The notes beneath the pieces were generated by a model that saw only the letters and a program-made list of their open reading frames with translations, searched no databases and was not told where the DNA came from. A stretch of DNA of 64,000 nucleotides, from contig JAIOPE010000004.1 in the NCBI GenBank assembly GCA_021414065.1, positions 38,636 through 102,635 on the forward strand, in the 5' to 3' direction. The DNA comes from Planctomycetota bacterium (GTDB taxonomy: Bacteria > Planctomycetota > JAJSAM01 > JAJVHW01). Position numbers and translations under genes: made by a program. This document shows, piece by piece, positions 2,214-47,778 of the stretch (positions are counted from its first letter, which is position 1; every line of letters begins with the position of its first letter).

Positions 2214-2225
2214 GTGTCGCTCCCG

Positions 2226-5143: not shown

Positions 5144-5228
5144 GGTGTTGTCGTGTTCCTCTGGTCCGTGCACCGCATCCTACGCGCTCCGGGTACACTC
5201 GTCCCCGCTCCTCGGGTGGACCGACCGC

Positions 5229-5312
5229 GGGAGAGTGGCGAAATGGCAGACGCGCGGGTCTTAGGAGCCCGTGGAGCAATCCTTGCGGGTTCGAGTCCCG
5301 CCTCTCCCACCA
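5229..5312 (+). tRNA. tRNA-Leu (anticodon TAG), CCA encoded
   Basis: Cloverleaf folded by hand. The acceptor stem is GGGAGAG / CTCTCCC and the anticodon loop is cTTAGga. There is a long variable arm (class II tRNA), a T arm GCGGG-TTCGAGT-CCCGC, discriminator A and a 3' CCA. Confidence 0.9.
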
Positions 5313-5335
5313 GCACACCAGGAGCGACGACACCC

Positions 5336-10800: not shown

Positions 10801-10877
10801 GTCCGACCTCACACGCGACGGCGCGGTGTTGCGCCCGCCGCGAGCCACTTGGGGCCAAGCGACGCTACATTGCCACG

Positions 10878-15586: not shown

Positions 15587-15594
15587 GAGGGGCC

Positions 15595-17361
15595 ATGGCC
15601 GCGACCGGTACCGGCGTCTCGATCGGCGGGAGGAACGTCCGCGTCCTCCAGGTGAGAAAGACCAAAGAGGGTGGGTGGCAGGTGCTGCGCGGCCTCGTCG
15701 CGCCGCACACCCAGGCCGAGCCCACGGAGGCGGCGCGTCTGTCGGAGGCGAAGTCCGCCGTCGCCAGCGCGCAGGCCAAGGGCCCGGCGCTCGTCGGCGC
15801 TTCGGGACGCGACCTGATCGTGCGCTACACCCACGTGCCGCCGGTCCCCGACTGGCGGCTCGAGATGCTCATGAACTTCGAGATCCAGGAGGTCGCGGAG
15901 CAGTCCGGAGGGGACGTCTCCGCGGCCTACGCGCAACTCGAAGTCGATGACGCCGCGAGCGGGGACAACGTCGTTCTCGTCGCGCTCGCGAAGAACACCT
16001 ATCTGAAGCCGCGCCTCGACGCGCTGCGGCAGACCGGCTTGGATATGCTCGGCGCGTGCCCGAAGGCCGTCGCCGCGTACTGGTGCTACCGCGAGAATGG
16101 GAAGGTCCGGCTCGACGAGACCGTCCTCCTGCTCAACATCGGTCACGAGAACACCGATGTCGCGATCATCCGCAAGGGCACGCTGCTCTTCGGGCGCAAC
16201 GTCGCGGGCGGCAGCAAGTTGCTCACCGACGCGATCCAGCAGAACGTGCGTGTGGACTTCGCCACCGCCGAGAAGCTGAAGATCACGAAGGGCAACCTCA
16301 CGCCCAAGGGTAAGGCGAAGTACCGCGACTCGATGGAGGAGAAGATCGCCAACGCGATGGCCGGCGCCGCCGGTCACTTCGTCTCGGCGGTCAACTCGTC
16401 GGTCATGTTTGCGAAGGCGCAGACGAAGGTCCCGGAGTGCAGCATCAGCCGCGTCGTCGTGACCGGCGGCGGGTCGCTTCTGAAGGGACTCGCTGACTAC
16501 CTTGAGTCGAGCCTCAACCTGCCCGTCGAGGTCTTCGACCCGATGGACTCTGTGGACCTCTCTGCGCTCACGGCGGAGGCTCAGGCCGCGCTGAAGCAGG
16601 ATCAGGGCGGCATGACGGTCGCGCTGGGTCTCGCGCAGATGGCGGCCGACGACGATGCGTTCCGTGTCGCCGTGGTGCCCGAGGAAGACAAGCGGAAGCG
16701 TCGCTTCAAGGAGCGGACGCTCTTCTCGATCGGCGCAGCGGCGGTGCTCGTCCTCGGGCTCGGCGCTGCATGGTCGATGCAGAGCAAGGCGTTCGACGCG
16801 GCGACCGTGGAGAAGGCGGAGCTGGCGAAGCGCAAGGCCATGTTCGAGACCAACCGGTCCGCGTTCGACAAGGCACAGGAGCGCGTCGCGGTCGTGACGA
16901 CGCGGAAGAACGAGCTGCGCACGCTCGTGGCCCTCGGACCCGCGTTCCAGATCATCACTGACGCCGTCCACTCCGTGATCAACCAGGGCGACGGGTACCA
17001 GGAAGTCAATGTTCTGAAGTGCACGTCGAAGATGTCCGACCACACGGTCAAGGACGCCCAGGACAACGCAGTGACGACCCGTGTGCCGTCCGTGGAGTTC
17101 GAGGCGAAGATCCAGGAAATCGGCGGGCGACCGATCTCGGTGGTCGAAGCGCAGTTCAAGTCGGACCTGCGATTGAAGCTGAAGCAGGTCGGCGGCTCGG
17201 TCGGCGGCAAGGATGCGATCGAGTACCAGGACGTCGGTTCGCTCGACGTCCAGAACGGTACCTTCAAGTTCCGCGTTCGCCAGATGGCGTTCCCGGAGAA
17301 GGTCATCCTGGAGGCGCAGTCGCCCTCGGACGACGCGGCGCCCAAGAAGGAGAAGCCCTAG
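15595..17361 (+). CDS. PilM-like actin-fold ATPase domain fused to a TM segment and PilN-like periplasmic domain (GspL-like topology)
   Basis: 588 aa. The N-terminal ~350 aa match PilM features (IGGRNVRVLQV..., LLLNIGHENTDVAIIRKGTLLFGRNVAGGSKLLTDAI, VVVTGGGSLLKGLADYLE). A TM helix (LFSIGAAAVLVLGLGAAW) follows, then a coiled-coil and an alpha/beta region. Confidence 0.8.
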   Translation: MAATGTGVSIGGRNVRVLQVRKTKEGGWQVLRGLVAPHTQAEPTEAARLSEAKSAVASAQAKGPALVGASGRDLIVRYTHVPPVPDWRLEMLMNFEIQEVAEQSGGDVSAAYAQLEVDDAASGDNVVLVALAKNTYLKPRLDALRQTGLDMLGACPKAVAAYWCYRENGKVRLDETVLLLNIGHENTDVAIIRKGTLLFGRNVAGGSKLLTDAIQQNVRVDFATAEKLKITKGNLTPKGKAKYRDSMEEKIANAMAGAAGHFVSAVNSSVMFAKAQTKVPECSISRVVVTGGGSLLKGLADYLESSLNLPVEVFDPMDSVDLSALTAEAQAALKQDQGGMTVALGLAQMAADDDAFRVAVVPEEDKRKRRFKERTLFSIGAAAVLVLGLGAAWSMQSKAFDAATVEKAELAKRKAMFETNRSAFDKAQERVAVVTTRKNELRTLVALGPAFQIITDAVHSVINQGDGYQEVNVLKCTSKMSDHTVKDAQDNAVTTRVPSVEFEAKIQEIGGRPISVVEAQFKSDLRLKLKQVGGSVGGKDAIEYQDVGSLDVQNGTFKFRVRQMAFPEKVILEAQSPSDDAAPKKEKP

Positions 17362-18207
17362 ATGGACGAGATCTGGCAGCGCCACAAGACGTTCATCCTC
17401 CAGTGCATCATTGGGGGCCTCGCCTTCCTCATCGCCCTCGTCGTGATGAGCAATTCGTACTCCGGCACGAAGGAGATCAAGGATCTCAACGTTTCGGGGA
17501 AGCGTGACCTCGACAAGCGCATCGCCGACGGCACTGCGCCGTCGGCCAAGTCGATCGCCGCCCAGAAGCAGAAGGCGGAAGATGCGAAGAACCAGATCCG
17601 CGACATGAGCGCGAAGGTCGCGTCGCTCGCGCAGGACGAGGACTACGTACGCGAGAACATCGTGTGGATCTTGAGCACGATCGAGAAGCCGGCGGTCGAG
17701 GCGGAGCGGTTCCTGACGCTGTACAAACAGCTTCCGCAGACCTGTCTCACGAGCGTCCGAGAAGAGGCCAGGTCGGTGCTGGTTGGTCGCGCTGCCCAGA
17801 AGGGGCGGCAGATCGACGAGAGCTTCGGCCTATCCGCGGGCGTGGACGAGACCGAAGTTCCGGGCGCCCTGCACGCGCTGGCGATCGTCTGCGACGTCAT
17901 GCGAAGGGCGCTCGACAAGGACGGCATCCAGGCTGTGAGCGACATCCGCGTCAACCCCCGCAACGCGGTCGGCTCCGACCTCTCGTGGATTTCGGGTGTG
18001 GACGTTCGCGTCTCGCTGGTCGGCGACCCGGACGACGTGATGAGCGTCATCCGGAGCTTCAACCAACTCGACCCCAAGATGAACCGCATGACCGTCGTTC
18101 GTGAGGTGGAGTCGATCCTCCGCCGCAGTCCCGACGAGGACACTGTGAAGGCGTCCATCGCGCTCTACGGGCTGCAGCAGAAGGGCGCCCAGGGAGAGGA
18201 CCGTTGA
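17362..18207 (+). CDS. PilO/GspM-like bitopic membrane protein
   Basis: The ATG directly abuts the upstream TAG. There is an N-terminal TM helix (FILQCIIGGLAFLIALVV) and a coiled-coil. The C-terminal VRVSLVGDPDDVMSVIRSFNQL pattern is typical of the ferredoxin-like PilO/GspM domain. The assignment rests on architecture and context, not strong motif identity. Confidence 0.55.
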   Translation: MDEIWQRHKTFILQCIIGGLAFLIALVVMSNSYSGTKEIKDLNVSGKRDLDKRIADGTAPSAKSIAAQKQKAEDAKNQIRDMSAKVASLAQDEDYVRENIVWILSTIEKPAVEAERFLTLYKQLPQTCLTSVREEARSVLVGRAAQKGRQIDESFGLSAGVDETEVPGALHALAIVCDVMRRALDKDGIQAVSDIRVNPRNAVGSDLSWISGVDVRVSLVGDPDDVMSVIRSFNQLDPKMNRMTVVREVESILRRSPDEDTVKASIALYGLQQKGAQGEDR

Positions 18208-20990
18208 AGAAAGAACAGATACTGCTCGTCGTGGCGGTCGGAGTCGTCGGACTGCTCGTCTGGTCGAGCACCGGCCTCTACGAATCGGTCGGAACACTCC
18301 CGGGCGACGGTCGCGACGTGGACGTGAAGCAGACCGTTCCGGCGAATCCCCAGGAGGGGGTCAAGTCCGATCCGCCGCTCGGCCGGAGCTTCCTGCGTCA
18401 GAAGCGCGTCGAACATCGCAAGGCGGCTCCTGAGCTCGATCTTCCGCCGGGCGTCGGCGTCCCGTGGATACGGCCGCTTCCCGTGCCGGAACTTCCCGCG
18501 GCCTTCTGGGGCGTGCTGCGCGAACCCATGGCTCCGGTGGCGAGGGCTGCCGCGGCGGCAACCGACGACGCGGCGGCCGCCGGTGCCGGTTCCACGGAGG
18601 AGGAGGATCCTGCCGTCATCGCGGCGCGCGACGCCGCCGCAGAGAAAGCGAAAGAGGAGACGCTCGGTCGCGAGCGCATCGCCAACGCAGCGAAGCTCGT
18701 TGGCAAGGACGGCAAGGAGTTGGCCGTCCGTCTGATCCCCCTCGGTGATCTCGCCGGAGCCGAGGTCTGGCGCCTGCTCGAGCGCTGGCCGAACTGCCGC
18801 TTCATGGTGGAGGAGTTGAACGCCGACGGGAAGTCGGTCCGCGGTCGCTACGAGGCCGACCCGGCCAAGTTCACGACCGTCCATCTCGAGAAGACTCTCG
18901 ACAACGAGTACAACGAAGAGCGAATCCGCCGCGGCGTGCGCGACAGCGATCGGCAGACGAACGTCGAGTTCGCCCAGTGGGTGCGTACGGCGCTGACTCC
19001 GAAGTACGGCGTGCCTGCGATTCGTTTTGCGCTGAAGCACCTCGCCGTCGCCAAGGCCGTTCAGTTCGATGCGGCTCTCGTGTCGCTGATCGGCGACACC
19101 TGCCGTGACGCGTACGACATCGACGAGGAGATCAAGGCGTATCTCGAGTACCTCCAGGGCACGCGCGCATCGGAGACTCCGATCGTCGTGCGCCTGGGCG
19201 ACGCCTACGAGCGCGCCGGCGCTGTGCAGGCGGCGCTCGACACGTATGATCGCGCTGCGAAGATGGGGGACAACGAGGGGCGACTTCGCCACGCCCTGGT
19301 CACCCTCATGCTCGCCCGCGGTACGTCGGATCTTCAGGCCGCATACGACGAGTTCGAGAAGTCGCAGTCCGGTTCGCAGCGCGGTCGTGCATTGGCCGGC
19401 ATGGCACGGGTCCGTCTCCGCCAGGGCAACCTGGCCGCTGCGGCGCAACTTGCGCAGCAGGCGCGCGATCTCGAGCCGTCGTCGTTCGACGCCGGAATGG
19501 TGCTGGGTGCTGCGCTGTACGCGACCGGCCAGTTCCCGCAGGCAGAGGCCGCCTTCGCCGCAGCAGCGGGTTCGGAGGCCCGTGGAAGCACGCGGTCGAA
19601 ATCGAACCGAGCCATGGCGCTGCTCGCGCAGGACAAGCTCGTGGACGCGATGGCGGAGGCCGACGCGTGTCTCGCGACGGATGCGCTCAACTACTTCGAC
19701 CCGCTCGTCGTCGCCGGCGAGGCGCAGCAGCGCTGGGGCGATCTGAACAAGAGCAACGACACCTTCCAGACGGCGCTGCAGCGGAACCCCCGCAACGCTT
19801 GGGCTCTGCTCCGCCTTGCGGCGATCCGCCTCCGCGACGGTCTGCCGAAGCCTGCCCTCGACCTCTGCCAGGGCGGCGAGGGTGTCACCGGACTCCTCCA
19901 ACTCGCGCCTGAGTCCGTGGACGCGCTCCACGTCGCCGGTCTCGCGTGTGCCGCCCAGGAGCGGCCGGACTGGGCGAACGCCGTGAAGTACCTGCGCCGG
20001 GCACTTGAGAAGGACCCGAAGAACTCGGAGCTGGTCTACGACCTCGGCAAGGTCCTACACCTCGCCGGTAAGACCGACGACGCCGTCCAGCTCCTTGAGA
20101 AGCTGACCGACGCGAACACCGGATCGTCGAAGAACGACGCACGAATGCTCGCGCTGCTTGCCTACATCTACTTCGACGGCAGCAAGCCGGTGGATCAGGT
20201 GTTCGCCACGTTCGACCGCGCCCGGCGCGCACCGCAGGCTTCCTGGACCAAGGAGTACATCGACAAGGCGTACGCCAAGGTCGTGGAGTGGAACAACACG
20301 CGCATCTGGGAGGACGACTGCAATCGCGCCCCCGGGAACCGCGTGGGCAACGGCTGGGACGAGACCGAGGCGCTCGGCGTGAACATCGGGCTGAGCGGTT
20401 CGGCGATCGTCTTCAGCGGTCGTGCGACGCCGGCTCCGGACCGGCCGAAGATGACCGGGATCTTCCGGCCCGAGGAGTTGGCGCCGTTGCAGGCGGTCGA
20501 GTTCTCCGTGAAGGCCGATCCTGGGTACGAGATGGTCCTGCATCTCTATCAGGGTGAACTCGCCTCGACGGATCCGACCAATCCGGCGGCAGGTGGCTCG
20601 CGCGGCGGACGCCGCACGGGCGGCGGCACGGAGCTCGGCTTCGGCCGTGCCCGGGACGGCCGGATGATGCTCTGGATCTATGGCGGGGCTGAGAACAAGA
20701 TGTTCAACATCCCCGTGAAGGACGACAAGGGCGCCGACCGCCAGTGGCCGCAGGACGACCAGTTCCACCGCGTGTCGTTCCGCCGCATCGGATTGCCGCA
20801 GAAGGGCGAGTTCGAGATCTACTTCGACGACGAGAAGGTGCCTACGCCGCTCACCGTCGAAATCGGTGGCCTCTCGGCCGCCTTCGGGAAGTCCGCCACC
20901 CTCGGCGTCCACGTGGACGCCGACCAGCAGGCCATGGTGAGCCTGCAGATCGACTCCGTGCAGATCGAGAAGATCCTCGGAAGAAGGTAA
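18204..20990 (+). CDS. membrane-anchored TPR-repeat protein with a C-terminal beta-sandwich (LamG/ConA-like) region
   Basis: The TTG start overlaps the upstream stop (TTGA). The N-terminal TM helix is ILLVVAVGVVGLLVW. The central part holds multiple TPR units. The C-terminal ~230 aa (FHRVSFRRIGLPQKGEFEIYFDDEKV...) are beta-rich. Confidence 0.7.
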   Translation: MKKEQILLVVAVGVVGLLVWSSTGLYESVGTLPGDGRDVDVKQTVPANPQEGVKSDPPLGRSFLRQKRVEHRKAAPELDLPPGVGVPWIRPLPVPELPAAFWGVLREPMAPVARAAAAATDDAAAAGAGSTEEEDPAVIAARDAAAEKAKEETLGRERIANAAKLVGKDGKELAVRLIPLGDLAGAEVWRLLERWPNCRFMVEELNADGKSVRGRYEADPAKFTTVHLEKTLDNEYNEERIRRGVRDSDRQTNVEFAQWVRTALTPKYGVPAIRFALKHLAVAKAVQFDAALVSLIGDTCRDAYDIDEEIKAYLEYLQGTRASETPIVVRLGDAYERAGAVQAALDTYDRAAKMGDNEGRLRHALVTLMLARGTSDLQAAYDEFEKSQSGSQRGRALAGMARVRLRQGNLAAAAQLAQQARDLEPSSFDAGMVLGAALYATGQFPQAEAAFAAAAGSEARGSTRSKSNRAMALLAQDKLVDAMAEADACLATDALNYFDPLVVAGEAQQRWGDLNKSNDTFQTALQRNPRNAWALLRLAAIRLRDGLPKPALDLCQGGEGVTGLLQLAPESVDALHVAGLACAAQERPDWANAVKYLRRALEKDPKNSELVYDLGKVLHLAGKTDDAVQLLEKLTDANTGSSKNDARMLALLAYIYFDGSKPVDQVFATFDRARRAPQASWTKEYIDKAYAKVVEWNNTRIWEDDCNRAPGNRVGNGWDETEALGVNIGLSGSAIVFSGRATPAPDRPKMTGIFRPEELAPLQAVEFSVKADPGYEMVLHLYQGELASTDPTNPAAGGSRGGRRTGGGTELGFGRARDGRMMLWIYGGAENKMFNIPVKDDKGADRQWPQDDQFHRVSFRRIGLPQKGEFEIYFDDEKVPTPLTVEIGGLSAAFGKSATLGVHVDADQQAMVSLQIDSVQIEKILGRR

Positions 20991-20999
20991 GGAGTCCGC

Positions 21000-21656
21000 A
21001 TGCGCCGCAACGCAGGGTTCACGTTGATCGAGATCCTCGTCGTCATCGCGATCATCGCAGCCATCCTGGGCGGGGTCTCGATCATGATCCGGAAGGCCTC
21101 GGGCGTCCAGCAGACGCTCAAGGCAACGAATCGTGTGAACGGGCTCGGGGCTGCCATCGACATGCTCCACGCTCCCGACAACCTCGGGATGTATCCGCCG
21201 TCTCGGATGGACCAACTGATCGGACCGGGCGCCACCGGACCGGTGGGCAAGAAGCTGGGGACGCCGCCGAACGACGTCAACTGCGGCATCGAGTCCGTGT
21301 ACGTCGCGGTCCGCCTGAAGGGCGTGAAGGCCGACGTGAGCGGGTTCGAGTCCGACGACTCGATCGCCAACCTGGACGATGACCGCGCCACGGCGATGGT
21401 CCCGGACATGATGTCCGGCGATCTCTTCGAGTACATCGACCCGTGGGGCAACCCGCTGGTGTACATCAGCTCACGGGACTACAAGGACCCGAAGAAGGTG
21501 GAACGGTACGTGCTTGGGGACAAGCAAGAGGTGAAGGTCGCGCCCGCCAAGCGGCCGAACGGCGAGTTCGTCCGACCGGACAGTTTCCAGCTCTTCAGCA
21601 TGGGCCCGGACGGCGTGCCCGGCACGGACGACGATATCCAGTACGGAAGCAACTGA
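21000..21656 (+). CDS. type II secretion GspG-like major pseudopilin
   Basis: Prepilin N-terminus MRRNAGFTLIEILVVIAIIAAILGG (G|FTLIE cleavage/methylation motif with Glu+5). GspG-type C-terminal signatures are present: DPWGNPLVY and FQLFSMGPDGVPGTDDDIQYG. Confidence 0.85.
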   Translation: MRRNAGFTLIEILVVIAIIAAILGGVSIMIRKASGVQQTLKATNRVNGLGAAIDMLHAPDNLGMYPPSRMDQLIGPGATGPVGKKLGTPPNDVNCGIESVYVAVRLKGVKADVSGFESDDSIANLDDDRATAMVPDMMSGDLFEYIDPWGNPLVYISSRDYKDPKKVERYVLGDKQEVKVAPAKRPNGEFVRPDSFQLFSMGPDGVPGTDDDIQYGSN

Positions 21657-21705
21657 TCCCCATCTGCGACCGGAACCAGCGGGACGACCTTCCGAGGAGG
21701 ACTTC

Positions 21706-22824
21706 TTGAAGACGATGCCCCGCGTGCGGCCCTGCGGCCGCTCTCTGAACCTGCACAGCTCGGGCTTCTCGTTGCTCGAGCTGATGGTCACGATGGGACT
21801 CGCGACGCTCCTGCTCGCCATGGGGGCAGGCGTGTACGTCAAGATGGGGCGACGGACGGCCGCCGTCCAGGCGATGGCGTCGGTGAACCAGCTCGTGACG
21901 CAAGCACGGAACGCATCCACTCGCTTCCCCGCGACCATCGTCGCCGACGCGAAGGAGATGGAGATCCGGGCCTACACCGACGAGGTGGTCCAGGAACTCC
22001 ACTTCGAGACCAGGATCACTGAGAACGGCGACTACGTACCCCAGGGCATCGAAGGGCGAGACTGCAGCTTCGTCGGCTCGCACGTCGAGCCCACGGCCGG
22101 CAGACTCGGCGGCGCTCTGAAGGTCGAGGGCGGCAGCGTCACCTGCGGGACCTTCGCGGCGTACGACGTGGACCAGGGGATCAACGCAGAGGTCTGGATC
22201 AAGCCGGTCTCTGCCCCGAAGTGCGACCTCGTCACGAAGGGGCGCACGTTCAAGGTCAAGCTGGACTCGTTCCCCAATCGGTCGGCGCGGGTCACGGTCA
22301 CCATCCAGCTCCAGGATGACGCAGGCGCGCAGGACGCCGTCTCTCGCACCGTGGACCTCCCAGCCGTGCGCCTGAACGAGTGGCTGGGTTTCCGCATCAG
22401 CTACGACCGCTCCGAGCTCGTCACGTCCACGAATGACGGCGGGTACGGGTGGGTCTCTCGGGACCGATGGAAGGAGAGCCGCCGGCTTGCCGTCGATCCG
22501 GACGCTCCGCTCGTCATCGCCGCCGGACTGCAGGGCTGGCTGGACGATGTTCGGATCGGCGGCATCCGCGCCGCGGAGCCGCTCCGGCTCCCGGCGGGTG
22601 TCGAACTCGTGGGACTCAACCCGCCGATCCGGTTCGTGGATGGGCGCCTGGACCCCGCGGTCCACTCGGGTCCGGCGAGGCTCGCGATCAACTCCGAAGG
22701 CAAGACGTCGGTGTTTGAGATTGGCCAGAGCGGGGCCGTGCTCTCGATCCACGACGGCGAGGCCGTCACCACGCCCAATCTGGGGCCGAAGCCGGTCCCG
22801 GTTCCCGTCCCGAAGAAGGAGTGA
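21706..22824 (+). CDS. prepilin-type minor pseudopilin with a LamG/ConA-like domain
   Basis: TTG start lies 5 nt after GAGGAGG. The N-terminus is ...SSGFSLLELMVTMGLATLLLAMG. The body has LamG-like hallmarks, ending in GLQGWLDDVRIGG. Confidence 0.75.
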   Translation: MKTMPRVRPCGRSLNLHSSGFSLLELMVTMGLATLLLAMGAGVYVKMGRRTAAVQAMASVNQLVTQARNASTRFPATIVADAKEMEIRAYTDEVVQELHFETRITENGDYVPQGIEGRDCSFVGSHVEPTAGRLGGALKVEGGSVTCGTFAAYDVDQGINAEVWIKPVSAPKCDLVTKGRTFKVKLDSFPNRSARVTVTIQLQDDAGAQDAVSRTVDLPAVRLNEWLGFRISYDRSELVTSTNDGGYGWVSRDRWKESRRLAVDPDAPLVIAAGLQGWLDDVRIGGIRAAEPLRLPAGVELVGLNPPIRFVDGRLDPAVHSGPARLAINSEGKTSVFEIGQSGAVLSIHDGEAVTTPNLGPKPVPVPVPKKE

Positions 22825-22933
22825 CACTCCCCGCTGGCCCGGGGTTTGTGCGTGCGGTTCGGCCTAGTTCAACCGCTCGCTGCAACCGCCTCTCGCGGTT
22901 CGTGGCGGCCCCGGTTGCTCAGGGAGCTCGAAC

Positions 22934-25900
22934 GTGCTGACTTCGGACGGAGCAATTGCCGCAGGCAAGACTCTGAACGAGATCGTGACCAAGACGGTGA
23001 CCAAGATGATGATAACTAAGTATCCGATCGGTGGTAACCAAGTGATCACTCCTCCGTCGCATTCGGCTGCGCGCGCTTCGAGATCCCGCCGGCACTCCGG
23101 GCGGCGCCCGTTCGGGCGCATCTCGCGCGGGGTCGCGCTCGTCTCGGTCGTCTCGGTGCTCGTGCTGCTGATGATCGTTGCCACGCCCTTCCTGCTGTCG
23201 ATGCGCGACAGCGCGAAGCGTGGCGAGAAGTTCCTCTCGAACGAGCGTGCCGACGCCGAGGCCGAGAGTCTCTTTGAGCGCGTGCGGTCGGTACTCACCT
23301 CCGGCTTGCAGCACATCGAACGGCGCAAGCTCGACGCTGGTGCGGCAGCCTCTGGTGGGAGTCGCCCAGCGAACGACGCGACCCCCACGAGCGACACGCC
23401 CGCAGAGTTCCAGCTCCCCGCGGAGATGCTCGCCGAGTTCAACCAGATGTCCGGGAAGGAGCACCGGGTCTGGAGCGTCGAGATCGTCGATGCGCAGTCG
23501 AAGTTCAACCTGAACACCTGCAGCGTCGGCGTTCTCGCGAACCTCCTCGGGCACGGCGAGCTCGGAGATGACATCACCTCGGGAGACGACCGCATCTCCG
23601 TGGGTGCGGGGCTTCCGCTGCCGGAGAAGGACGGAGTCGTTCGCATCGGCTCGGAAGTGATCAAGTACGAGACGTACGACAAGGGCGGCGTGCTGCTCGG
23701 GTGCAAGCGCGGTTTCGCGGCCGACAAGGGCGGAAACAGCGGCGCGGCCGACCACAAGAAGGGTTCGTCGATCATTGCGGAGGCTGCGTTCCAGCTCGCC
23801 GTCCGCCCCTTCCAGGCGCGACCGGGCTCGTGGGTCCGCTACACGAACGTGTACGAGGCCCGCTCGATCTCCGACATGGGAGTCACGACGCTTCGAGCCG
23901 AGGACTTCGATCGCGTCCGTCGCTATCTCACCGCTTGGAGCGGCAACGTCGTCGGTGACGGGTGGTCGAACCCCCAGCTCGTCCGAAACGCGATCTCCGC
24001 CGGTTCGCAGGACCTGTACGCCCAGATCAAGAACGTGCGTTACTTCGGCCCGGGCACGATCGTCCGGATCACCGACGGTGTGAACAACGACTATGCGGTT
24101 GTCACCGACGTACGCGGCACGAACAGCGTGGCGCTGGTCGGGAACATCCAGCACGAGTACCAGGCCGATCAGACACGCATCTACACGCTCGCGCGGGCCG
24201 CCGTGAACGTGAACACCGCCGACGCGCAGACGCTTGCGCTCGTCTTCGAGGGACTGCAACTCGATGGCAAGGAGGCGAAGATCAGCCGGGAGCAGGCGCA
24301 GACGCTTGCGCAGTTCCTTAAGGACTGGAAGAACTCTCTCAACCCGGACGACAAAAACCCCGAGGTGGGAACGTTCCGAAGCTGGCAGGACTTCGTGAAG
24401 GCGCTCGAGGACGCCCGCGACGTGAAGAGCATCCTGAACGGCGACGACTTCGAGGCGGTCCTGCGGAACTGCCTGAATGCCGCCGACGCGCGACTCTCCT
24501 TTTCGACCGTGCCCATCTGCTTCGCGAGCTTCGACGTCTACGAAGCTCGGGTCACGGCCGCGCTCATGGGAGTGCAGGGCCAGGAGAACGCGCGCCGCGA
24601 ACTGCGTCGCGTGTTCGACGTCTCCACGGCCCGTTCCTCCACGTTCGTCATCGAGACGCAGGCGGATTTCCAGGAGCAGATCCGGATCTCGCGCGACGCG
24701 AAGTGGTTCGTCACCTACCCGACGAACGTGAACGCCTTCTACGACGGCGTGAACGAGCCGCCGTCTGAGTACCGGGCCTACGCGAACAAGAACCGGTTCC
24801 CCGACACGGACCGCGCCGCGTCGGCGGGCCACCTCCAGTTGCGAGAAGCCGCCTTCCGCCTCGCAGGTCGCACGGACCGGACGAACCACTTCGACGAGGA
24901 GGACTCCCCGGAGGGCGTGGATCTCTCCAAGCAGGCGCTTGAGATCTCCATCGACGCGCCCTACGACGCCAAGGCACGCAAGGCGGATCTGGCGAAGTTC
25001 GTGCAGGTCCCGCAGCGCTCCACCGACACCGAAGTCGGCCTGGCGCCGTTCGCGTGTTCCTTCTGGTACAAGCCCGGCTGGAGCCTCGACTCCTCGGAGC
25101 ACATCATCTTCGACTACGGTCGCGACGAGGCATTCCTCAACCGCGTCTCGCTGCGCTACGACCCGGCCCGCAATGGACTCGTGCTCGCCGTGGCAGACGC
25201 CACCCGCGAGCAGAGAGCCTGCGAGATCGAGCACCTGTTCGACAAGGACAAGGGCATCAAATGGGAGCAGGACACGTGGTATCACATCGCCTGCACCGTT
25301 TACGGGTGCTCGCCGTCGATGATGGAGTTGTTCGTCGACGGTGAGCAGGTCGGCCGCAATCCGCTGCAGACGCGTCTCTCGAACCAGGTCCAGCCCCTCG
25401 GAGACATCAACTCGCTCGAGGTGGAGGACGCATCCGGGTTCCCCGACTCCGGCGTGCTCATCGTGCGCGGAGTTGACGGCGTCGAGTTGTTCGAGTACTC
25501 GCAGCACAGCAACACCGGTTTCACGATCATCCGCCGGAAGGCGCGGACGCTGGACCACCAACTCGACCAGAACCAGGAGAAGCAGCGCGCACACGCCGCC
25601 GGTGAAGTGGTCGAACTCTACGGCTTCGCGGCGCCGCTCCTCTCCGACGTGAAGCGCGGCGGCGGCACGCTGCCGACGGCGATCGGGCCGTGGCGGGTGT
25701 TCCGCGTCCACGGCACCGACACGATCTCGTACACGCTCACCGCAGGCGGCACGTTCAACGTGACCAACGGCGTGGCGTTCAACCCGAACGCGACGTCGAG
25801 CACGCCGACGACGGTCACGCTCACCGAGTGGGTGAACGGTGACCCCACCGACACGAACACGCTCGACGATCTCGGGCCGCAGAACTCCGAGGGGATCGCG

Positions 25901-28375
25901 CTCATCGTCTCGCCGACCATCACGGTGAACGGCGTGAGCGGCAACCAGGGCGTGGTCACCACCCTCGGCGGCGTCACGAACAGCGACGTCATCGGCGGTG
26001 TGGACGTGGTGCACTACAAGGTCACGACCACCGGCAGCGGCGGACTGACCGTCGAGCTCACCAACCGCGGGCTGAACCTGAAGCACTGGCAGGCGAGCGA
26101 CTACATCCGCAACGCGGAGGGACGGTCCGGGATCGGGCGCTTCTTCCCCGGGTACGACTACGGCAATCCGGCCTCCGTGTGGCCCCCCTACACGGTCAAT
26201 GGCGTGTCGCTTCCGGACCGCGGCGTGCCGTGCGCCTTCATTCCGATCGGTGTGCTGCTCAACGGGACCGGCTCCAGCTATCTCGACCCGGCGAACCAGG
26301 AGCCTCAGCTCGGCTACACGGATGCACAGGGCAACTACGCGCCCAGTGCCGCGTTCGTTCAGGTGGACTCCGAGTGGTTCAAGTACGACGCGTTCGACAA
26401 CCAGCTCATTCCCGGGAAGACCGCCCTTTACCGCGACTTGTCGCTGTGGCTCTCTCCGCAGCCAAGCGCGACGCAGGGTGCGTCAACGCCGAGCATCCAG
26501 TCCGTGTTCCGCGCGGGCGCTACGCAGTTGGTGGGACCGATCGTTCAGAACTCCACCGGGCAGGGCGGCGGGTCCGGCGGCGCATCGACGAACACGGAGC
26601 CTTCGTTCGCCTCGGATCGAAACGTCGAGACGCGGCAGCTTGACGTGCCGAAGACGTCCGGTACGCAGCCGAACAACGAGAAGTCGCCCCCGGAAGTCGC
26701 GGGCGTGCTCGACCTGAGCATGTTGAACATCTCTCGCTCGGTGGACTACCGGAGCTGGGAGGACCGCACGAACAATCGGATCCACCGGATCGCCAACACG
26801 ATTGCGGACTCGCATGCGGCGAACGCGCCCGTGATCCCCTGCTTCGCCCTGTACTCCGGCAACGAGTGGGACGTGACCGAGATGGGACGCCGGGCCAACG
26901 GCGGGTTCAACGATCTGATCACGTTGCGCGACCAGCGCGGCTCGGACGAGCAGATCCGTCTGCAGTGGGGCTATCTCGACCGCTCGCGCACCGGGCTCGG
27001 CGCTCAGGTGCCCTCGGTGAACTGGGTCGCGCCGACGCAGCAGACGATTCAGACCTGGCAGTGGGATCGGCCGACCGACGTGAACGACATGCGCCGCTAC
27101 CCGTCGCAGGCCTTCACCCGCGCGATTAAGTTCCCGAGTGGTGAGATGCCGGACCAGATCCTGACGGCGAACGTCGAGAAAGTGCGTTTCGGCGCGCGGT
27201 ACGACAACGCGGGCGGGACCACGCCGGCGATCGTTGACGAACTGACATTCCCTCTCCTGCAGGTCCCGCCGGACGACCGCCGCGACTGGGTGTTCCTGGG
27301 CCAGGTCCCGGCGCAGATCTTCACGGCGCCGACGACGAGCACAACGACCACAACGACCGCGTTGAAGTTCGTCGGCATCGACGAGAAGACCGACTCGATC
27401 CCGATCTTCATGCCGTTCTACGACCCGAACATCCGGGGGATCGTCCAGCAGGGCCTGCCGATCCCCGCCGAGGTGTTCCGCGCAGACGGTGGGATCGTCC
27501 GGATCGACGAGGAACTCATCCTCTACTCCTCGATCGACACCGAGGCCGGCACGCTGCAGGGCTGCGTCCGTGGTCGCTTCGGCACCCCGGCCAAGTCGCA
27601 CGAGTACGGCGCGATCATCATCCCGGTCGAGACGTTCCCGACGTCGATCCTGATGGCCGGCGTGGATGAGAGTTCCGCGTCGTACGAGATCTCGGACCCG
27701 AGCGACTTCCCCGACGACGGTTGCCTGCGCATCGGCGACGGACTCGAACTGATCGGCTACACCGAGATCTCCGGGAACCAGTTGACCGGACCGCTCGGTC
27801 GCATCGACTCCAACGCCGCGGGCACGCAGGTCAAGCCGGGGCAGGAGGACAAGCGGGTCGGCGGCGCGCTCTTCCGCGGCCGCTTCGGAACGACGCCGGC
27901 CGGGTACCAGCAGGGCGACGTCGTCCTCGCCATGCCGTGGCGACACTACGACCGCTACGCGGAACGCTCCGACGATCCGGAGAACGCGTACTCGCAGTTC
28001 TCGTGGACCAAGTCGAACGCGATCTGGAAGCGGGTCACCTGGGACGAGAATCCCGTGAAGAACGTCGAGGTCATCGCGCTCGTTCGCTTCTCCGGCGGTC
28101 CGGCGTGGGACGCCGACAAGATCATCCGCGTCGGTCAGGAAGAGATCCCGAAGTCGAACCGAAACGCGTTCCTGTACGAGATCACCGACCCGAAGGCTGA
28201 GAACCTGCTCAACGTCGAAGCGGATCGGATCGAGGTGCGCCTGATGGTGCGCTTCGCGAAGGGTGCGTACGATCGCAACATGACGCCGCGGCCCAACGAG
28301 TGGAAGCAGACGCCTTGGGTACAGAAGGTCGTCGTCGAGTACGTGGCGCCGTCGTCGGTGATGTCGCAGGAGTGA
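22934..28375 (+). CDS. giant GspK-like minor pseudopilin with an internal LamG domain (start uncertain: 22934, 23006 or GTG 23042)
   Basis: 1813-aa ORF. The GspK-type N-terminus is RGVALVSVVSVLVLLMIVATPFLL (hydrophobic segment, no Glu+5). The GspK/ComEA-type helix-hairpin-helix motif AAVNVNTADAQTLALVF is at 24203-24220. A LamG-like block FACSFWYKPGW...WYHIACTV...MELFVDGEQVG lies at about 25045-25420. Frame-consistent GC3 bias runs throughout. Confidence 0.8.
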   Translation: MLTSDGAIAAGKTLNEIVTKTVTKMMITKYPIGGNQVITPPSHSAARASRSRRHSGRRPFGRISRGVALVSVVSVLVLLMIVATPFLLSMRDSAKRGEKFLSNERADAEAESLFERVRSVLTSGLQHIERRKLDAGAAASGGSRPANDATPTSDTPAEFQLPAEMLAEFNQMSGKEHRVWSVEIVDAQSKFNLNTCSVGVLANLLGHGELGDDITSGDDRISVGAGLPLPEKDGVVRIGSEVIKYETYDKGGVLLGCKRGFAADKGGNSGAADHKKGSSIIAEAAFQLAVRPFQARPGSWVRYTNVYEARSISDMGVTTLRAEDFDRVRRYLTAWSGNVVGDGWSNPQLVRNAISAGSQDLYAQIKNVRYFGPGTIVRITDGVNNDYAVVTDVRGTNSVALVGNIQHEYQADQTRIYTLARAAVNVNTADAQTLALVFEGLQLDGKEAKISREQAQTLAQFLKDWKNSLNPDDKNPEVGTFRSWQDFVKALEDARDVKSILNGDDFEAVLRNCLNAADARLSFSTVPICFASFDVYEARVTAALMGVQGQENARRELRRVFDVSTARSSTFVIETQADFQEQIRISRDAKWFVTYPTNVNAFYDGVNEPPSEYRAYANKNRFPDTDRAASAGHLQLREAAFRLAGRTDRTNHFDEEDSPEGVDLSKQALEISIDAPYDAKARKADLAKFVQVPQRSTDTEVGLAPFACSFWYKPGWSLDSSEHIIFDYGRDEAFLNRVSLRYDPARNGLVLAVADATREQRACEIEHLFDKDKGIKWEQDTWYHIACTVYGCSPSMMELFVDGEQVGRNPLQTRLSNQVQPLGDINSLEVEDASGFPDSGVLIVRGVDGVELFEYSQHSNTGFTIIRRKARTLDHQLDQNQEKQRAHAAGEVVELYGFAAPLLSDVKRGGGTLPTAIGPWRVFRVHGTDTISYTLTAGGTFNVTNGVAFNPNATSSTPTTVTLTEWVNGDPTDTNTLDDLGPQNSEGIALIVSPTITVNGVSGNQGVVTTLGGVTNSDVIGGVDVVHYKVTTTGSGGLTVELTNRGLNLKHWQASDYIRNAEGRSGIGRFFPGYDYGNPASVWPPYTVNGVSLPDRGVPCAFIPIGVLLNGTGSSYLDPANQEPQLGYTDAQGNYAPSAAFVQVDSEWFKYDAFDNQLIPGKTALYRDLSLWLSPQPSATQGASTPSIQSVFRAGATQLVGPIVQNSTGQGGGSGGASTNTEPSFASDRNVETRQLDVPKTSGTQPNNEKSPPEVAGVLDLSMLNISRSVDYRSWEDRTNNRIHRIANTIADSHAANAPVIPCFALYSGNEWDVTEMGRRANGGFNDLITLRDQRGSDEQIRLQWGYLDRSRTGLGAQVPSVNWVAPTQQTIQTWQWDRPTDVNDMRRYPSQAFTRAIKFPSGEMPDQILTANVEKVRFGARYDNAGGTTPAIVDELTFPLLQVPPDDRRDWVFLGQVPAQIFTAPTTSTTTTTTALKFVGIDEKTDSIPIFMPFYDPNIRGIVQQGLPIPAEVFRADGGIVRIDEELILYSSIDTEAGTLQGCVRGRFGTPAKSHEYGAIIIPVETFPTSILMAGVDESSASYEISDPSDFPDDGCLRIGDGLELIGYTEISGNQLTGPLGRIDSNAAGTQVKPGQEDKRVGGALFRGRFGTTPAGYQQGDVVLAMPWRHYDRYAERSDDPENAYSQFSWTKSNAIWKRVTWDENPVKNVEVIALVRFSGGPAWDADKIIRVGQEEIPKSNRNAFLYEITDPKAENLLNVEADRIEVRLMVRFAKGAYDRNMTPRPNEWKQTPWVQKVVVEYVAPSSVMSQE
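22985..23006 (+). promoter_or_regulatory. direct repeat GTGACCAAGA-N2-GTGACCAAGA inside an atypically AT-rich stretch
   Basis: GTGACCAAGA occurs at 22985-22994 and 22997-23006. It is followed by TGATGATAACTAAGTATCC. This is the most AT-rich stretch I noticed in the window and lies at the very 5' end of the giant ORF. A regulatory role is inference only. Confidence 0.25.
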
Positions 28376-29619
28376 TGACCATGGAACTCCAACAACGCTC
28401 CCGCGGACCGTCAGGCTTCTCGCTCATCGAGTTGATGGTGGCGATGGGCATCTTCTCCGTGATCGGAATCGCGATCGTCTCGCTGCTGACGCGGGCGACC
28501 GAGTTCAGTCGCGCGGGTACGTCCACGACCGAGGTGCTCGACACTCTCCAGTCGTTCACGGAGACGTTCGGCGCGGACGCCGGTGCGATCTACTCGCGGT
28601 CGGACTCGGACGACGGGGCGCCGGTCGTTCGGCTCTACTCCGACGTCGTGAAAACCGACGTGGACGGGGACCAACGCCCGGACGCTCAGGTCCGGCGGTT
28701 GATGTTCGTCCGCATGATCCCCGGCGAGGCGACCGGATCCGTGACACGTACCGCCGGGTCCAACGTCGGCGCCACTGCCGTCATGGACCAGAACCTGGAC
28801 TTGGAGAAGGCCGCAAAGGGGTCGCTCCGCCCGACCGGCGGGCTCATGGAGGTCTTCTGGACCGCGGTGCCCGAGAACAAGGACGATCTCGCGCTCCTGA
28901 CCGCCTACCGCGGCGTACTCGCGCCTCCGGGGGTTGCGGGCAAGACGTTCTTCCCGACGAAATGGGCAGCGGACCCGACGGCCCGCGGGCCGGTGGACCG
29001 TGGCCCGGTTGACCTGAAGGACGTCCAGGCCGTCGCGCGCCCGGTACTCGCCGGCATCCTGTACTTCGGCGTGGATTTCTGGTCCCGTCGCACCGAGACG
29101 TGGGATGCGACGATCGTCCCGCCGAAGGGGCCGCTCCAGGTCTGGGACTCGACGCGCGGGATCATCCCGAAGGGCAAGGGCATCGACGGTTTCTGGTTTG
29201 CCAAACCGAACGTCGTCAACGAGACGCCGACGCTGCTCGACTCCGGTGACGACACGTTCCCACGCCGGATGCGCGTCACGCTCGTCGCGGAAGAGGCGGG
29301 CCAGACCGCGCGAACCGGCCTCCTGATGTCGGAGCTCAGCGCCGACGCTGCCGTGATCGATGTGTCGGACGTGCGGTTCATCCCTGCGACCGACACGACG
29401 CAGCGTTTCGTGAAGATCGGGCCCGAGTGGATCGAGTTCGGCGGCGTCGAGGGGAACCGGATCACCGGCTGCAAGCGCGGCGTGCGCGGCACCACGGCTG
29501 TCGCCCACGAGTACGGATCACGCGTGCACTACGGCAGGACTGTGGTGCGTGAGATCGCCATCGCCACGTATCGAGACGCGTACCGGGACGAACTGCCCTC
29601 CATCAGCGGGCGGAAGTAG
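28375..29619 (+). CDS. prepilin-type minor pseudopilin (PilW/GspJ-like size)
   Basis: The ATG at 28375 overlaps the upstream stop (TGATG). The N-terminus is MTMELQQRSRGPSGFSLIELMVAMGIFSVIGIAIVSLL, a G|FSLIE prepilin motif. 414 aa. Confidence 0.8.
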   Translation: MTMELQQRSRGPSGFSLIELMVAMGIFSVIGIAIVSLLTRATEFSRAGTSTTEVLDTLQSFTETFGADAGAIYSRSDSDDGAPVVRLYSDVVKTDVDGDQRPDAQVRRLMFVRMIPGEATGSVTRTAGSNVGATAVMDQNLDLEKAAKGSLRPTGGLMEVFWTAVPENKDDLALLTAYRGVLAPPGVAGKTFFPTKWAADPTARGPVDRGPVDLKDVQAVARPVLAGILYFGVDFWSRRTETWDATIVPPKGPLQVWDSTRGIIPKGKGIDGFWFAKPNVVNETPTLLDSGDDTFPRRMRVTLVAEEAGQTARTGLLMSELSADAAVIDVSDVRFIPATDTTQRFVKIGPEWIEFGGVEGNRITGCKRGVRGTTAVAHEYGSRVHYGRTVVREIAIATYRDAYRDELPSISGRK

Positions 29620-29624
29620 GTATC

Positions 29625-30176
29625 ATGATCCCACGCATGCGTCGCGCCCGAGGGTTCACGTTGCTCGAGGTCATGATGGCCACCGCCGTCCTGGCCGTAG
29701 GCACGATCTCGGTGCTCATGGTGTTCGGCACTGCTCTCTCGTTCGCCCATCGGCGCCAGGGGCAGCAGCAGTTGACTCAGGTGCTGCAGGAGGCGAGATC
29801 CGACGCGCGTGCGCTCGTGAACTCGTACCGCCCCTCGAAGTCCGGGGCGTCGCAGTCGGGCTCCGCGGCGAAGGATCGGGCGGCCAACACGACCGGCGTC
29901 GCCTCCCCGGCGGGGCAGGACCCCGAGACGCAGCCGAAGAACAGCACCGTGTTCGCGGCCTACACCTACAAACTGCGGTTCGAGCCTGTCCGTCGCGACG
30001 TGCCCGAGTCAGGCTGGCGCACGACCGTCACGGTGAACTGGGGTGACGGGCAGGAGTACGCTGAGGCGATCGTCATCACATCCGACGTGATTCCCGACGA
30101 GGAGTTCGCCTCCTCGAAGACGTACGAAGAAGAGCGCGCCGGCATCGACGCCGCGAAGTCGCGCGAGAAGCGCTGA
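29625..30176 (+). CDS. prepilin-type minor pseudopilin (GspI/GspH-like size)
   Basis: N-terminus MIPRMRRARGFTLLEVMMATAVLAVGTISVLMVFG, a G|FTLLE prepilin motif. 183 aa. Starts 5 nt after the preceding stop. Confidence 0.8.
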   Translation: MIPRMRRARGFTLLEVMMATAVLAVGTISVLMVFGTALSFAHRRQGQQQLTQVLQEARSDARALVNSYRPSKSGASQSGSAAKDRAANTTGVASPAGQDPETQPKNSTVFAAYTYKLRFEPVRRDVPESGWRTTVTVNWGDGQEYAEAIVITSDVIPDEEFASSKTYEEERAGIDAAKSREKR

Positions 30177-30181
30177 AGGAG

Positions 30182-31672
30182 ATGCAGATGCGAAAGACGT
30201 GGGGCTGGCTCCTTGGACTTCTCGTGATCACCGGGATCGGCGCGATCGCGCAGGCGGATGTCGTCGAGTTGGTCGGCGGTCGCGCCGTGCAGGGCCGCAT
30301 TCTCTCCGGGCAGACGTCCGAAGAGGCTCTCGCCCTGGAGTTGTACGACACCGGCGGCACGATCTTGGTCAAGTGGGACCACATCGTCCCGGCGCGTGCG
30401 AAGGAACTCCGCGTCCAGACCGGAATCGAGGTCTCCGAGGACGAGGCACCTACGGTCGCCGGTCACCGGGTGCTTCTCGTGACGGGCCAGGTTCTCGAGG
30501 GCTTGGTCCTCAACCCGGACGCGAAGGACGGTCCGGTCCAGCTCAAGACGCGGACCTCGGTGCAGAACATCGACCGCTCGCAGTGGGTGCGCACGGACCC
30601 CACGGAGCTCGACGGCCTCCTCGTCTACAAGCCCGAGGAGTGGTACCAGATCCGCCGCGACCAGAGCCCGCCGGACACGCCGTTTGCCCACAAGTTGATG
30701 GCGCTCTTCTGCATGAAGATCGGCGCGCTCTCCCAGGCGTCCACGCACCTCGAAGCCGCGATGGCTGACGGCCCCTTCTCCGAGACACCCGAAGGCAAGG
30801 TACTGCCGGCGCTCAAGAAGCAACTTGACGTGCTCATGAAGTCTCAGGGCGCGCAGGACCTGGTGGCGCAGATCAACGCCGCGATGCGGTCGAACCGTTG
30901 GAACCTCGCGCTCAGCACGCTGAACCAGCTCGACGCACAGTACAAGGACGAACAGGTTCGGAAACTCGTGCACTTCGAACTGCTTGAGAGTCGCGTCGTG
31001 CGCGGTCGCGACGGTTACTTCGGCAAGGAGGTCCAGCGCCGCGTCTATGCGACCATGGGCCGCCTGATCGAGGGGAAGTCCCGCGAGAAGAAGCCGCTGC
31101 GCGCGGATGAGAACGCGCCGCGTGGCGTGGCGACCCCGGGGACGCTCGCGGCGGCCCGTCAGTGGCTGGCGCGCGACCTGCCGACGCAGCTCTGGGAGAA
31201 GGTCGCCGCCGAGCTCGAGTTGAAGCCCGAAGAGATGGACCGCTACTGGAAGGCCCGCAGCGGCAAGAACTACCAGTCTTCGTCGTACGGCACCGGCTCG
31301 TTCATCGTGATCAAGCGAGCTGCCGCAGCTGGCGGGTCCGACCCGAATCGGCAGCGTCGGCCTGCGGGCTCGACGCGCGACTCCGGTGGTCAGCAGGGCG
31401 GTCCTCAGCGACAGAGCAAGGAAGACAAGCCGAAGACCGAAGAGGAGTGGTGGGATGAGCGCAGCCCCGGCGATCGCGCCCGCTGGCTCACGGCGTTCTT
31501 CGGTGAGTCGAGCGGGATCTTCGAGGTCATCCGCGCCGACGAGTCGGAATCCTGCGACTCGTGTGGCGGACGCGGCGTTCTCGTGTCGAACGGCACGGAC
31601 GGATCGACCCAGAGCACCGTCTGCCCGAAGTGCAACGGCTCGACCAAGTTCCGCAAGGTCGTCTTCAAGTGA
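30182..31672 (+). CDS. secreted hypothetical protein with a C-terminal CxxCxGxG / CxxCxG zinc-finger-like motif
   Basis: Signal peptide MQMRKTWGWLLGLLVITGIGAIAQA. There is a Gly/Gln/Arg-rich low-complexity linker. The C-terminus is SCDSCGGRGVLVSNGTDGSTQSTVCPKCNGSTKF (DnaJ-type zinc-finger pattern). Starts 5 nt after the preceding gene. Confidence 0.7.
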   Translation: MQMRKTWGWLLGLLVITGIGAIAQADVVELVGGRAVQGRILSGQTSEEALALELYDTGGTILVKWDHIVPARAKELRVQTGIEVSEDEAPTVAGHRVLLVTGQVLEGLVLNPDAKDGPVQLKTRTSVQNIDRSQWVRTDPTELDGLLVYKPEEWYQIRRDQSPPDTPFAHKLMALFCMKIGALSQASTHLEAAMADGPFSETPEGKVLPALKKQLDVLMKSQGAQDLVAQINAAMRSNRWNLALSTLNQLDAQYKDEQVRKLVHFELLESRVVRGRDGYFGKEVQRRVYATMGRLIEGKSREKKPLRADENAPRGVATPGTLAAARQWLARDLPTQLWEKVAAELELKPEEMDRYWKARSGKNYQSSSYGTGSFIVIKRAAAAGGSDPNRQRRPAGSTRDSGGQQGGPQRQSKEDKPKTEEEWWDERSPGDRARWLTAFFGESSGIFEVIRADESESCDSCGGRGVLVSNGTDGSTQSTVCPKCNGSTKFRKVVFK

Positions 31673-34563: not shown

Positions 34564-34637
34564 GCGTTCCCTGCATCGGCCCGCTCGCGCAGCGGAATCG
34601 AGCCCGCGGCGGCAGCGTCAGGTACAGTCGGCGGAGC

Positions 34638-47777: not shown

Positions 47778-47778
47778 C

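Follow-up and report, generated by a model that had tools for sequence, protein, structure and literature searches.

GspK caps the GspI-J-K tip that primes GspG polymerization in type II secretion systems (T2SS). The binding or secretion specificity of a type-4 filament is set by the minor pilins at its tip. PilY1 of type IVa pili does not belong to the pilins; its defining feature is a C-terminal β-propeller. The Verru_Chthon cassette (TIGR02596-TIGR02600) of Verrucomicrobia comprises a very large protein A and three small proteins with prepilin-type N-termini. Structures exist for the GspI-J-K and XcpVWX complexes, and the tip complex has been described (PMC6211770). Lectin modules that have been joined to minor pilins bind glycans at the tip of the pilus, and PilC (ConA-like) and PilB (vWA) of Streptococcus sanguinis are modular minor pilins (PMC8179133, PMC9934059). 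Here, we analyzed a 64,000-nucleotide stretch of contig JAIOPE010000004.1 from a Planctomycetota bacterium (the window). One of its genes codes for a protein of probably 1789 amino acids (aa), which is very likely a giant GspK-derived minor pseudopilin. We give a probability of roughly 0.6 to the reading that it is an adhesin or capture tip, the predicted tip subunit of a T2SS-like type-4 filament in uncultured Planctomycetota.

The giant protein was compared with the closest described systems. Like GspK, XcpX and PulK, it has a prepilin-type helix, Gly at −1, no Glu at +5, a β-hairpin followed by 'D.Q..FNLN', a 'VNVNTA' helix-hairpin-helix and closing strands, and its gene accompanies those of G-, H-, I- and J-like pseudopilins. 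Unlike them, it is about 5.5 times longer, has two barrels in the α-domain region, a C-terminal head of about 1240 aa and a 42-aa leader, and scores below the family cut-offs. The gene order is G-H-K-J-I, no linked gspC/D/E/F/O was found, and the host belongs to Planctomycetota, not Proteobacteria. With modular minor pilins it shares a pilin module that carries a ConA/LamG-type module for filament-tip display; it combines a GspK-like pilin module with LamG (PF13385), a domain not specific to type-4 filaments. The described type IV pilus pilins have a few hundred residues and one extra module, whereas the giant protein has a GspK-like carrier and, as its added part, a compact multi-domain body of 1240 aa. 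The IPR012902/N_methyl signature of the published modular-pilin survey was not detected in the giant protein by Pfam scan.

In its proposed role, the giant protein resembles PilY1/PilC of type IVa pili, in which a tip complex of minor pilins likewise displays a ligand-binding protein of large size (>1000 aa). A difference is that its adhesin-sized body is covalently fused to a K-type pilin. Membership in PilY1/PilC was rejected, as no propeller appeared among the Pfam or Foldseek matches. The Verru_Chthon cassette belongs to a sister phylum within the Planctomycetes–Verrucomicrobia–Chlamydiae group, and neighbors of the giant gene weakly matched the cassette B, C and D models via their N-termini. 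The giant protein matched no cassette model at E ≤ 0.1, and identity with cassette protein A (TIGR02600) was rejected. A literature search found no paper on this cassette. By analogy, the giant protein would combine a GspK cap with an adhesin the size of PilY1, which fits the modular-pilin concept. Its family would be by far the largest pilin-type subunit that we found described, the maximum in the modular-pilin survey being 860 aa. The literature search yielded no publication that deals with giant GspK-like proteins or with this gene cluster of planctomycetes.

Reading frame and family of the giant protein

The giant gene lies in an uninterrupted + strand open reading frame (ORF) of 1813 codons, counted from the first GTG (22934..28375). 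The window has a G+C content of 65–72% and holds long spurious frames, so the length of the ORF by itself proves nothing. A 1055-aa antisense ORF (22919..26086, − strand) shadows the giant gene. This ORF finds no support in the homology evidence gathered here, and it is a typical high-GC artefact. Homologues of the giant protein share the N-terminal pattern 'M-TK-P--GN', which points to ATG 23006 or 23009 as the start codon and to a protein of 1789 or 1788 aa. Judged from this alignment, the protein likely starts at ATG 23006 and has 1789 aa rather than 1813 aa. Its residue numbers are counted from this codon. An earlier first-pass annotation of the window had described a single 1813-aa frame; the uninterrupted frame stood, and its length was revised. 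The peptides quoted there (RGVALVSVVSVLVLLMIVATPFLL, VNVNTADAQTL, FACSFWYKPGW...MELFVDGEQVG, TVTLTEWVNGDPTDTNTLDDLG and VTTTGSGGLTVELTNRG) were all found in the translation, and its description of the protein as several-fold larger than GspK agreed with the length of canonical GspKs (286–393 aa).

A database search returned 40 proteins matching the giant protein at E ≤ 1e-3, with 24–63% identity and the whole length covered. Twenty-seven of them were 45–61% identical, covered 97–100% of the query and were 1718–1823 aa long. A further 12 were 24–30% identical and mostly 1560–1865 aa long. In the homologue alignments, conserved residues were distributed along the entire protein. These results bear on whether the giant ORF is an artefact. 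Several genes could have been fused by a frameshift or in the assembly, or the frame could be open by chance in DNA of high G+C content. The base composition of the window and its long spurious antisense ORFs, such as the one described above, are what such an artefact would have in its favor. Against it, dozens of independent assemblies carry collinear homologues of 1700–1900 aa with the same 97–100% query coverage, residues are conserved over the full length, and AlphaFold 2 (AF2) modeled the proposed junctions with confidence. The probability of an artefact is negligible.

The family was searched exhaustively with HMMER, using query residues 1–560 against 1.84 billion representative proteins. 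It comprised 389 clusters at E ≤ 1e-3, 258 at E ≤ 1e-10 and 57 at E ≤ 1e-30. Non-fragmentary members were nearly all 1550–2040 aa long. Twenty clusters were looked up, and each organism-identifying name was Planctomycetota or a Planctomycetia metagenome-assembled genome. Their product names were hypothetical, 'LamG domain-containing' or 'pseudopilin PulG'. Close relatives were present in six GTDB species genomes, all of uncultured Planctomycetota, and no member from a cultured species was seen among the clusters sampled. A further profile search using a word index added no family members to those already known. As far as sampled, the family is confined to uncultured Planctomycetota. By these alignments and lengths, giant size is a conserved property of a sizeable, unstudied family, and for this reason the fusion artefact was rejected. 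A fusion of several genes had been named in the first-pass annotation as an objection to its own proposal; full-length homologues and family lengths mostly of 1550–2040 aa were found instead.

GspK-like core and C-terminal head

The predicted cleavage region of the giant protein reads ...ISRG/VALVSVVSVLVLLMIVATPFLL, with Gly at −1 followed by a hydrophobic helix. The absence of Glu at +5, reported in the first-pass annotation, was confirmed. The residue is Ser, as in the family consensus RGIALISV. In this it is like GspK and unlike other pilins, which have Glu at that position. G42, A44 and L45 were nearly invariant in the homologue alignment, and hhalign aligned this N-terminus with the GspK consensus QRGVAL.

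An alignment of 31 canonical GspKs was used as the reference for hhalign. Family residues 27–174 aligned with GspK positions 3–112 (98.2% probability, E 4e-14), a stretch spanning the helix, the β-hairpin and the 'D.Q..FNLN' motif. The region after this match was queried as an eight-sequence alignment from eight loci. It aligned with GspK positions 184–292 (86.6% probability, E 4e-6), spanning the 'VNVNTA' helix-hairpin-helix, the next helices and the closing strands. The two pieces were collinear, and GspK positions 113–183 stayed unaligned. With the single Escherichia coli K-12 GspK, only the N-terminal helix was aligned (43%), and the 31-GspK alignment was needed for more. T2SS_GspK (NF037980) was the sole NCBIfam match of the giant protein at E ≤ 0.1 (E 1e-11). 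It was matched by 22 of 24 family members at E ≤ 0.01, and no other NCBIfam family was matched in them. After removal of the two barrels described below, the score rose to 60 bits (E 2.7e-16), and profile positions 189–247 were matched by the second half on its own (E 1.3e-6). Pfam T2SSK was matched by eight of the 24 members at E ≤ 0.1, with a best value of 1.7e-5. Pfam HHH_3 matched GspK-like part 2 below threshold, and PF21687 gave no match in the giant protein.

The AF2 model of residues 1–690 had a mean predicted local distance difference test (pLDDT) of 80.4 and a predicted template modeling score (pTM) of 0.77. In this model, the leader (residues 1–42) is disordered, and residues 43–98 form a 56-residue helix. 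A hairpin at residues 147–162 stands together with the first helix-hairpin-helix motif. Then come β-barrel 1 (residues 183–258), three helices and β-barrel 2 (residues 320–395). The second helix-hairpin-helix and its helices occupy residues 407–490, closing strands occupy residues 497–538, and a poorly modeled linker follows. This order of secondary structure is compatible with GspK. We show that two β-barrels of about 75 residues are inserted in the GspK α-domain region, and that residues ~25–545, with these two inserts, are homologous to most of the canonical GspK chain. Because of the inserts, the core has about 545 residues, and the value of about 350 in the first-pass annotation was too low.

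Several results weigh against calling this N-terminus GspK. The NF037980 score was 45 bits for the whole protein and 60 bits without the barrels, both below the equivalog cut-off of 130 bits. Pfam T2SSK (PF03934) reached 13.5–15.4 bits in the giant protein against a gathering threshold of 24.2 bits. No GspK was found when PDB sequences were searched by phmmer, with the whole protein or with an insert-free composite, or by hmmsearch with the family profile. When the 690-aa N-terminal model was run against the PDB with Foldseek, no match reached E ≤ 0.001. GspK was missing from the 50 matches listed, which were small barrels only, e.g., the V-ATPase N-terminal barrel and phage baseplate proteins. 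The 42-aa leader is atypically long for GspK. The GspK-type N-terminus proposed in the first-pass annotation was nevertheless upheld by the two collinear hhalign matches and the NCBIfam matches; this support did not extend to curated scores or to the structure search. On these profile alignments, the giant N-terminus is best described as a divergent GspK homologue with the same linear topology, not an equivalog.

The inserted barrel is a recurrent module of about 50–75 aa with the motif 'G..RI.DE.I.Y...G.L.G..RG..GT.A..H..G..V'. At least five or six copies occur in the giant protein. In addition to the two inserts (Table 1), copies lie at about 25412–25630, 27491–27628 and 27719–27934, and one copy is found near the C-terminus of the adjacent J-like pseudopilin. 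The module has no Pfam family of its own. It aligned weakly with 8rk3_o, the J-like tip attachment protein of phage JBD30 (E 0.056), with Rcc01698_C (E 0.024), with phrog_7578 (E 8e-6) and phrog_1101, and with baseplate and virion proteins. Insert 1 gave weak PHROG matches to baseplate and virion proteins at residues 178–239. In four YHYH-domain (PF14240) proteins of 2042–3440 aa (P0214–P0217), a short stretch (3–4%) of the family profile was matched at E 1e-15 to 1e-21. This match probably reflects the shared small barrel.

The LamG module reported in the first-pass annotation proved to be real. Laminin_G_3 (PF13385) scored 33.3–35.5 bits against a cut-off of 27.6 and was significant in both the 1813-aa form and the isolated segment. 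The family profile matched PDB 4qvs in the LamG region (E 8e-4), and Foldseek matched jelly-rolls, namely lectin-like subdomains of clostridial neurotoxin Hc, the thrombospondin N-terminal domain and CBM40. At odds with these matches, a Pfam scan of the 1789-aa form as a member of the family alignment listed no family.

The AF2 model of residues 640–1789 had a pLDDT of 85.9 and a pTM of 0.84. Because this pTM is high for 1150 residues, the head appears to be one compact body and not beads on a string. The model indicates that residues ~640–1789 form a compact, β-rich head with the LamG jelly-roll and more barrel copies, the latter at about residues 803–875, 1496–1541 and 1572–1643. A Gly/Pro-rich loop lies at about residues 1150–1240, and a highly conserved C-terminal β-sandwich at about residues 1663–1780. 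Outside LamG, the remaining ~1000 aa of the head had no match in Pfam, NCBIfam or PHROGs families or in solved structures. Phage tail and baseplate host-recognition proteins (JBD30 8rk3; LamG-rich cyanophage proteins) share the ~50-aa barrel ('..RIDDE.I.Y...G.L.G..RG..GT.A..H..G..V') and LamG jelly-rolls with the giant protein. Among viral models, Foldseek matched the head with phage structural proteins rich in LamG, at TM-scores of 0.06–0.12. These scores reflect shared domains only, and a phage-like whole architecture was rejected. The window has no phage context.

The pseudopilin block and the proposed role of the giant protein

The giant gene sits among pseudopilin genes, with G- and H-like genes before it and J- and I-like genes after it. 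These four flanking genes code for class III signal peptides with canonical G/F..E+5 signals, and the ATG of the J-like gene overlaps the stop codon of the giant gene. They are part of an operon-like run of closely spaced or overlapping genes on the + strand (13103–31672; Table 1), which includes a PilM-PilN fusion. By analogy, the architecture of this fusion would be that of GspL.

The block order, with similar gene sizes, was kept in nine of the 11 loci examined (L001–L005 and L015–L018), although the giant proteins of these loci are only 24–50% identical. The zinc-ribbon protein was conserved after the pseudopilins. In the window, the block is followed by genes for a weak peptidyl-prolyl isomerase (PPIase)-like protein, ScpB and a SurA-like protein with a SurA-N domain (32618–36677). 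The same trio follows the block in L001 and L016–L018, whose giant proteins are about 25–50% identical to the query, and, by size and position, in L015. The trio implies either very old synteny or a functional link, e.g., periplasmic chaperones for the giant protein. Because block order and downstream genes recur in divergent loci, old vertical conservation is indicated, not a mobile island. The giant GspK-type subunit would then be part of an ancient block that was conserved by vertical descent in a lineage of uncultured Planctomycetota.

Two variations were seen in this set. In L015 (8001–14129), a 2042-aa homologue aligned with the query N-terminus only from its residue 318, which suggests an H-like pseudopilin fused to the giant gene or a gene call merging two overlapping genes. 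The H-like pseudopilins of L003 (8964–10004), L004 (8997–10001) and L005 (6331–7311) had weak LamG (PF13385) matches. The H-like copy of the window had no Pfam LamG match, though it is similar by eye to those copies.

In the reading we prefer, the giant protein would be cleaved at G42/V43 by a prepilin peptidase and would nucleate, within the inner membrane, a tip complex of the K-I-J(-H) type. Polymerization of GspG-like subunits under this tip would push the head, estimated at roughly 135 kDa from ~1240 residues, through the periplasm and possibly past the outer membrane. The LamG and β-sandwich modules could then bind a glycan or surface ligand. The tip subunit would be an adhesin or capture device, not a bare piston cap. 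Adhesion or ligand capture is favored by the presence of a lectin-type module, by barrels resembling those of phage tails and by earlier examples of minor pilins with lectin modules, and from this analogy we infer an adhesin or substrate-capture role. Display of the head on a pseudopilus would mean that machinery of the T2SS type had been converted to adhesion or capture. The block would in that case be a defined set of genes that could be tested for a part in the unexplained fibres of planctomycetes and in their uptake of macromolecules.

Other observations speak against an adhesive filament tip. LamG domains bind proteins too, and a secretin channel may be too narrow for a head of ~135 kDa. 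Secretin, GspE/PilB ATPase, GspF/PilC and prepilin peptidase were not found among the window ORFs scanned, and the same secretion genes were absent from the listings within 8–10 kb in the nine syntenic loci. With no secretin, ATPase, platform or peptidase gene found nearby, filament assembly would depend on unseen genes. The remaining two of the 11 loci, L013 (10001–15757, 1918 aa) and L014 (10001–15430, 1809 aa), are orphans without a pseudopilin cluster. Upstream of them lie genes for a sigma-70 region-4 protein resembling extracytoplasmic function (ECF) sigma factors and a 561–569-aa single-pass protein resembling an anti-sigma factor, and the downstream gene codes for elongation factor P (EF-P). 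The idea from the first-pass annotation that homologues might always sit between two pseudopilin genes held at the nine syntenic loci and failed at these two. The L013 orphan and the clustered L015 copy come from the same sample, and one genome may carry both kinds.

One alternative is a classical T2SS piston cap, in which the pseudopilus stays periplasmic and the head docks or loads exoproteins, or plugs the outer-membrane pore, and is no surface adhesin. The major subunit is GspG-like and not PilA-like, the minor subunits form a G/H/I/J/K-like set, and the canonical K-I-J tip contacts substrates and the secretin, all of which suit a piston cap. The conserved block contains no secretin or exoprotein genes, however, canonical T2SS function needs no such head, and LamG and phage-tail-like barrels are typical of ligand-binding surface structures. 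We regard a piston cap as unlikely, while giving it some weight. A periplasmic head would challenge the view of the GspK cap as a mere assembly primer.

The giant protein could also be a bitopic inner-membrane protein, with a pilin-like anchor tethering a periplasmic glycan-binding or scaffold protein that is never polymerized. The orphan paralogues beside ECF sigma/anti-sigma genes, which lack pseudopilin neighbors, make this plausible, and the long, atypical leader and the failure to find an assembly ATPase gene nearby point the same way. Against this reading, the whole GspK pilin fold is kept and not the helix alone. There is a tight and ancient linkage to the genes of four other pseudopilins and to PilM/N/O-like genes, and the overlap with the next pseudopilin gene suggests translational coupling. 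A tethered, non-polymerizing protein is decidedly unlikely, and the adhesin or capture tip remains our preferred reading. An extension of the latter is quite improbable: that the block is a Planctomycetota-specific type-4 filament machine whose lectin-bearing ~135-kDa tip is a harpoon for polysaccharides or particles. If true, the block would be a candidate for the genes behind the glycan-binding fibres of planctomycetes and their uptake of macromolecules. Dextran-binding fibres have been described in cultured planctomycete species (PMC5394234), and a 2025 review states that it is still not known which components take part when planctomycetes take up macromolecules via fibres (PMC12673574). 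With no cultured-species member seen among the clusters sampled, the link to fibres is a low-probability lead only.

Other features of the window

Coordinates of the giant gene, its parts and the other genes of the block are listed in Table 1. A slash marks the predicted cleavage position.

Table 1. The giant gene, its predicted parts and the neighboring genes of the block (window positions)
Feature	Position	Strand	Basis
827-aa protein, two FHA / YscD-cytoplasmic-like domains, first gene of block	13103..15586	+	Family scans, synteny
PilM-PilN fusion: PilM-like actin-fold domain, transmembrane segment, periplasmic part	15595..17361	+	Pfam PilM_2, sequence
281-aa bitopic coiled-coil protein, PilO/GspM-like by architecture only	17362..18207	+	No family match
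928-aa tetratricopeptide repeat (TPR) protein, conserved in block	18204..20990	+	Family scans, synteny
GspG-like major pseudopilin, G/FTLIE, motifs IDPWGNPLVY and GPDG..GTDDDI	21000..21656	+	Family scans, sequence
372-aa minor pseudopilin, tentatively GspH-like, G/FSLLE	21706..22824	+	Family scans, sequence
Giant GspK-like minor pseudopilin gene, likely 1789 aa	23006..28375	+	ORF, homologue N-termini; mechanical ORF start GTG 22934
Predicted 42-aa leader, predicted prepilin-peptidase site ...ISRG/VALVS (G42/V43)	23006..23131	+	Sequence, near-invariant residues
GspK-like part 1: α1 helix (aa 43-98), β-hairpin, first 'DAQSKFNLN' motif	23084..23527	+	hhalign 98.2%; NCBIfam GspK positions 2-105
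β-barrel insert 1, aa 183-258, motif GVVRIGSEVIKY...CKRG...H..G	23552..23779	+	AF2 strands, Foldseek small barrels
β-barrel insert 2, aa 320-395, GTIVRITDGVNNDYAVV...	23963..24190	+	AF2; conserved in eight-sequence alignment
GspK-like part 2: 'VNVNTADAQTL' helix-hairpin-helix, helices, closing β-strands, aa ~373-525	24122..24580	+	hhalign 86.6%; NCBIfam 189-247
LamG / concanavalin-A-like jelly-roll, aa 675-792	25028..25381	+	Pfam PF13385, PDB 4qvs profile match, Foldseek
Rest of head, aa 793-1789, β-rich	25382..28372	+	AF2; no Pfam family
414-aa minor pseudopilin, tentatively GspJ-like, G/FSLIE	28375..29619	+	Family scans, sequence
183-aa minor pseudopilin, GspI/PilV-like (I assignment tentative), G/FTLLE	29625..30176	+	Family scans, sequence
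496-aa protein, signal-peptide-like N-terminus, C-terminal CxxC zinc ribbon	30182..31672	+	Sequence, conserved after pseudopilin genes

A sigma-54 activator, an enhancer-binding protein with a GAF domain, is encoded just upstream of the block (10236–12614). The cluster of L002 adjoins another sigma-54 activator (L002 23086–24663) and a CHASE/PAS histidine kinase. The sigma-54 promoter pattern had 16 matches in the window against 14.2 expected, which is chance, and sigma-70 promoter and terminator scans were also at chance level. Two + strand ORFs upstream of the cluster, 762–3176 (804 aa) and 3395–5959 (854 aa), matched no Pfam family. On the − strand, 46653–50810 carries an MlaD-like gene (46653–47798) and a 740-aa ORF containing MlaE (48588–50810). 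These genes are unrelated to the giant gene and indicate that the organism has an Mla-type lipid transport system.

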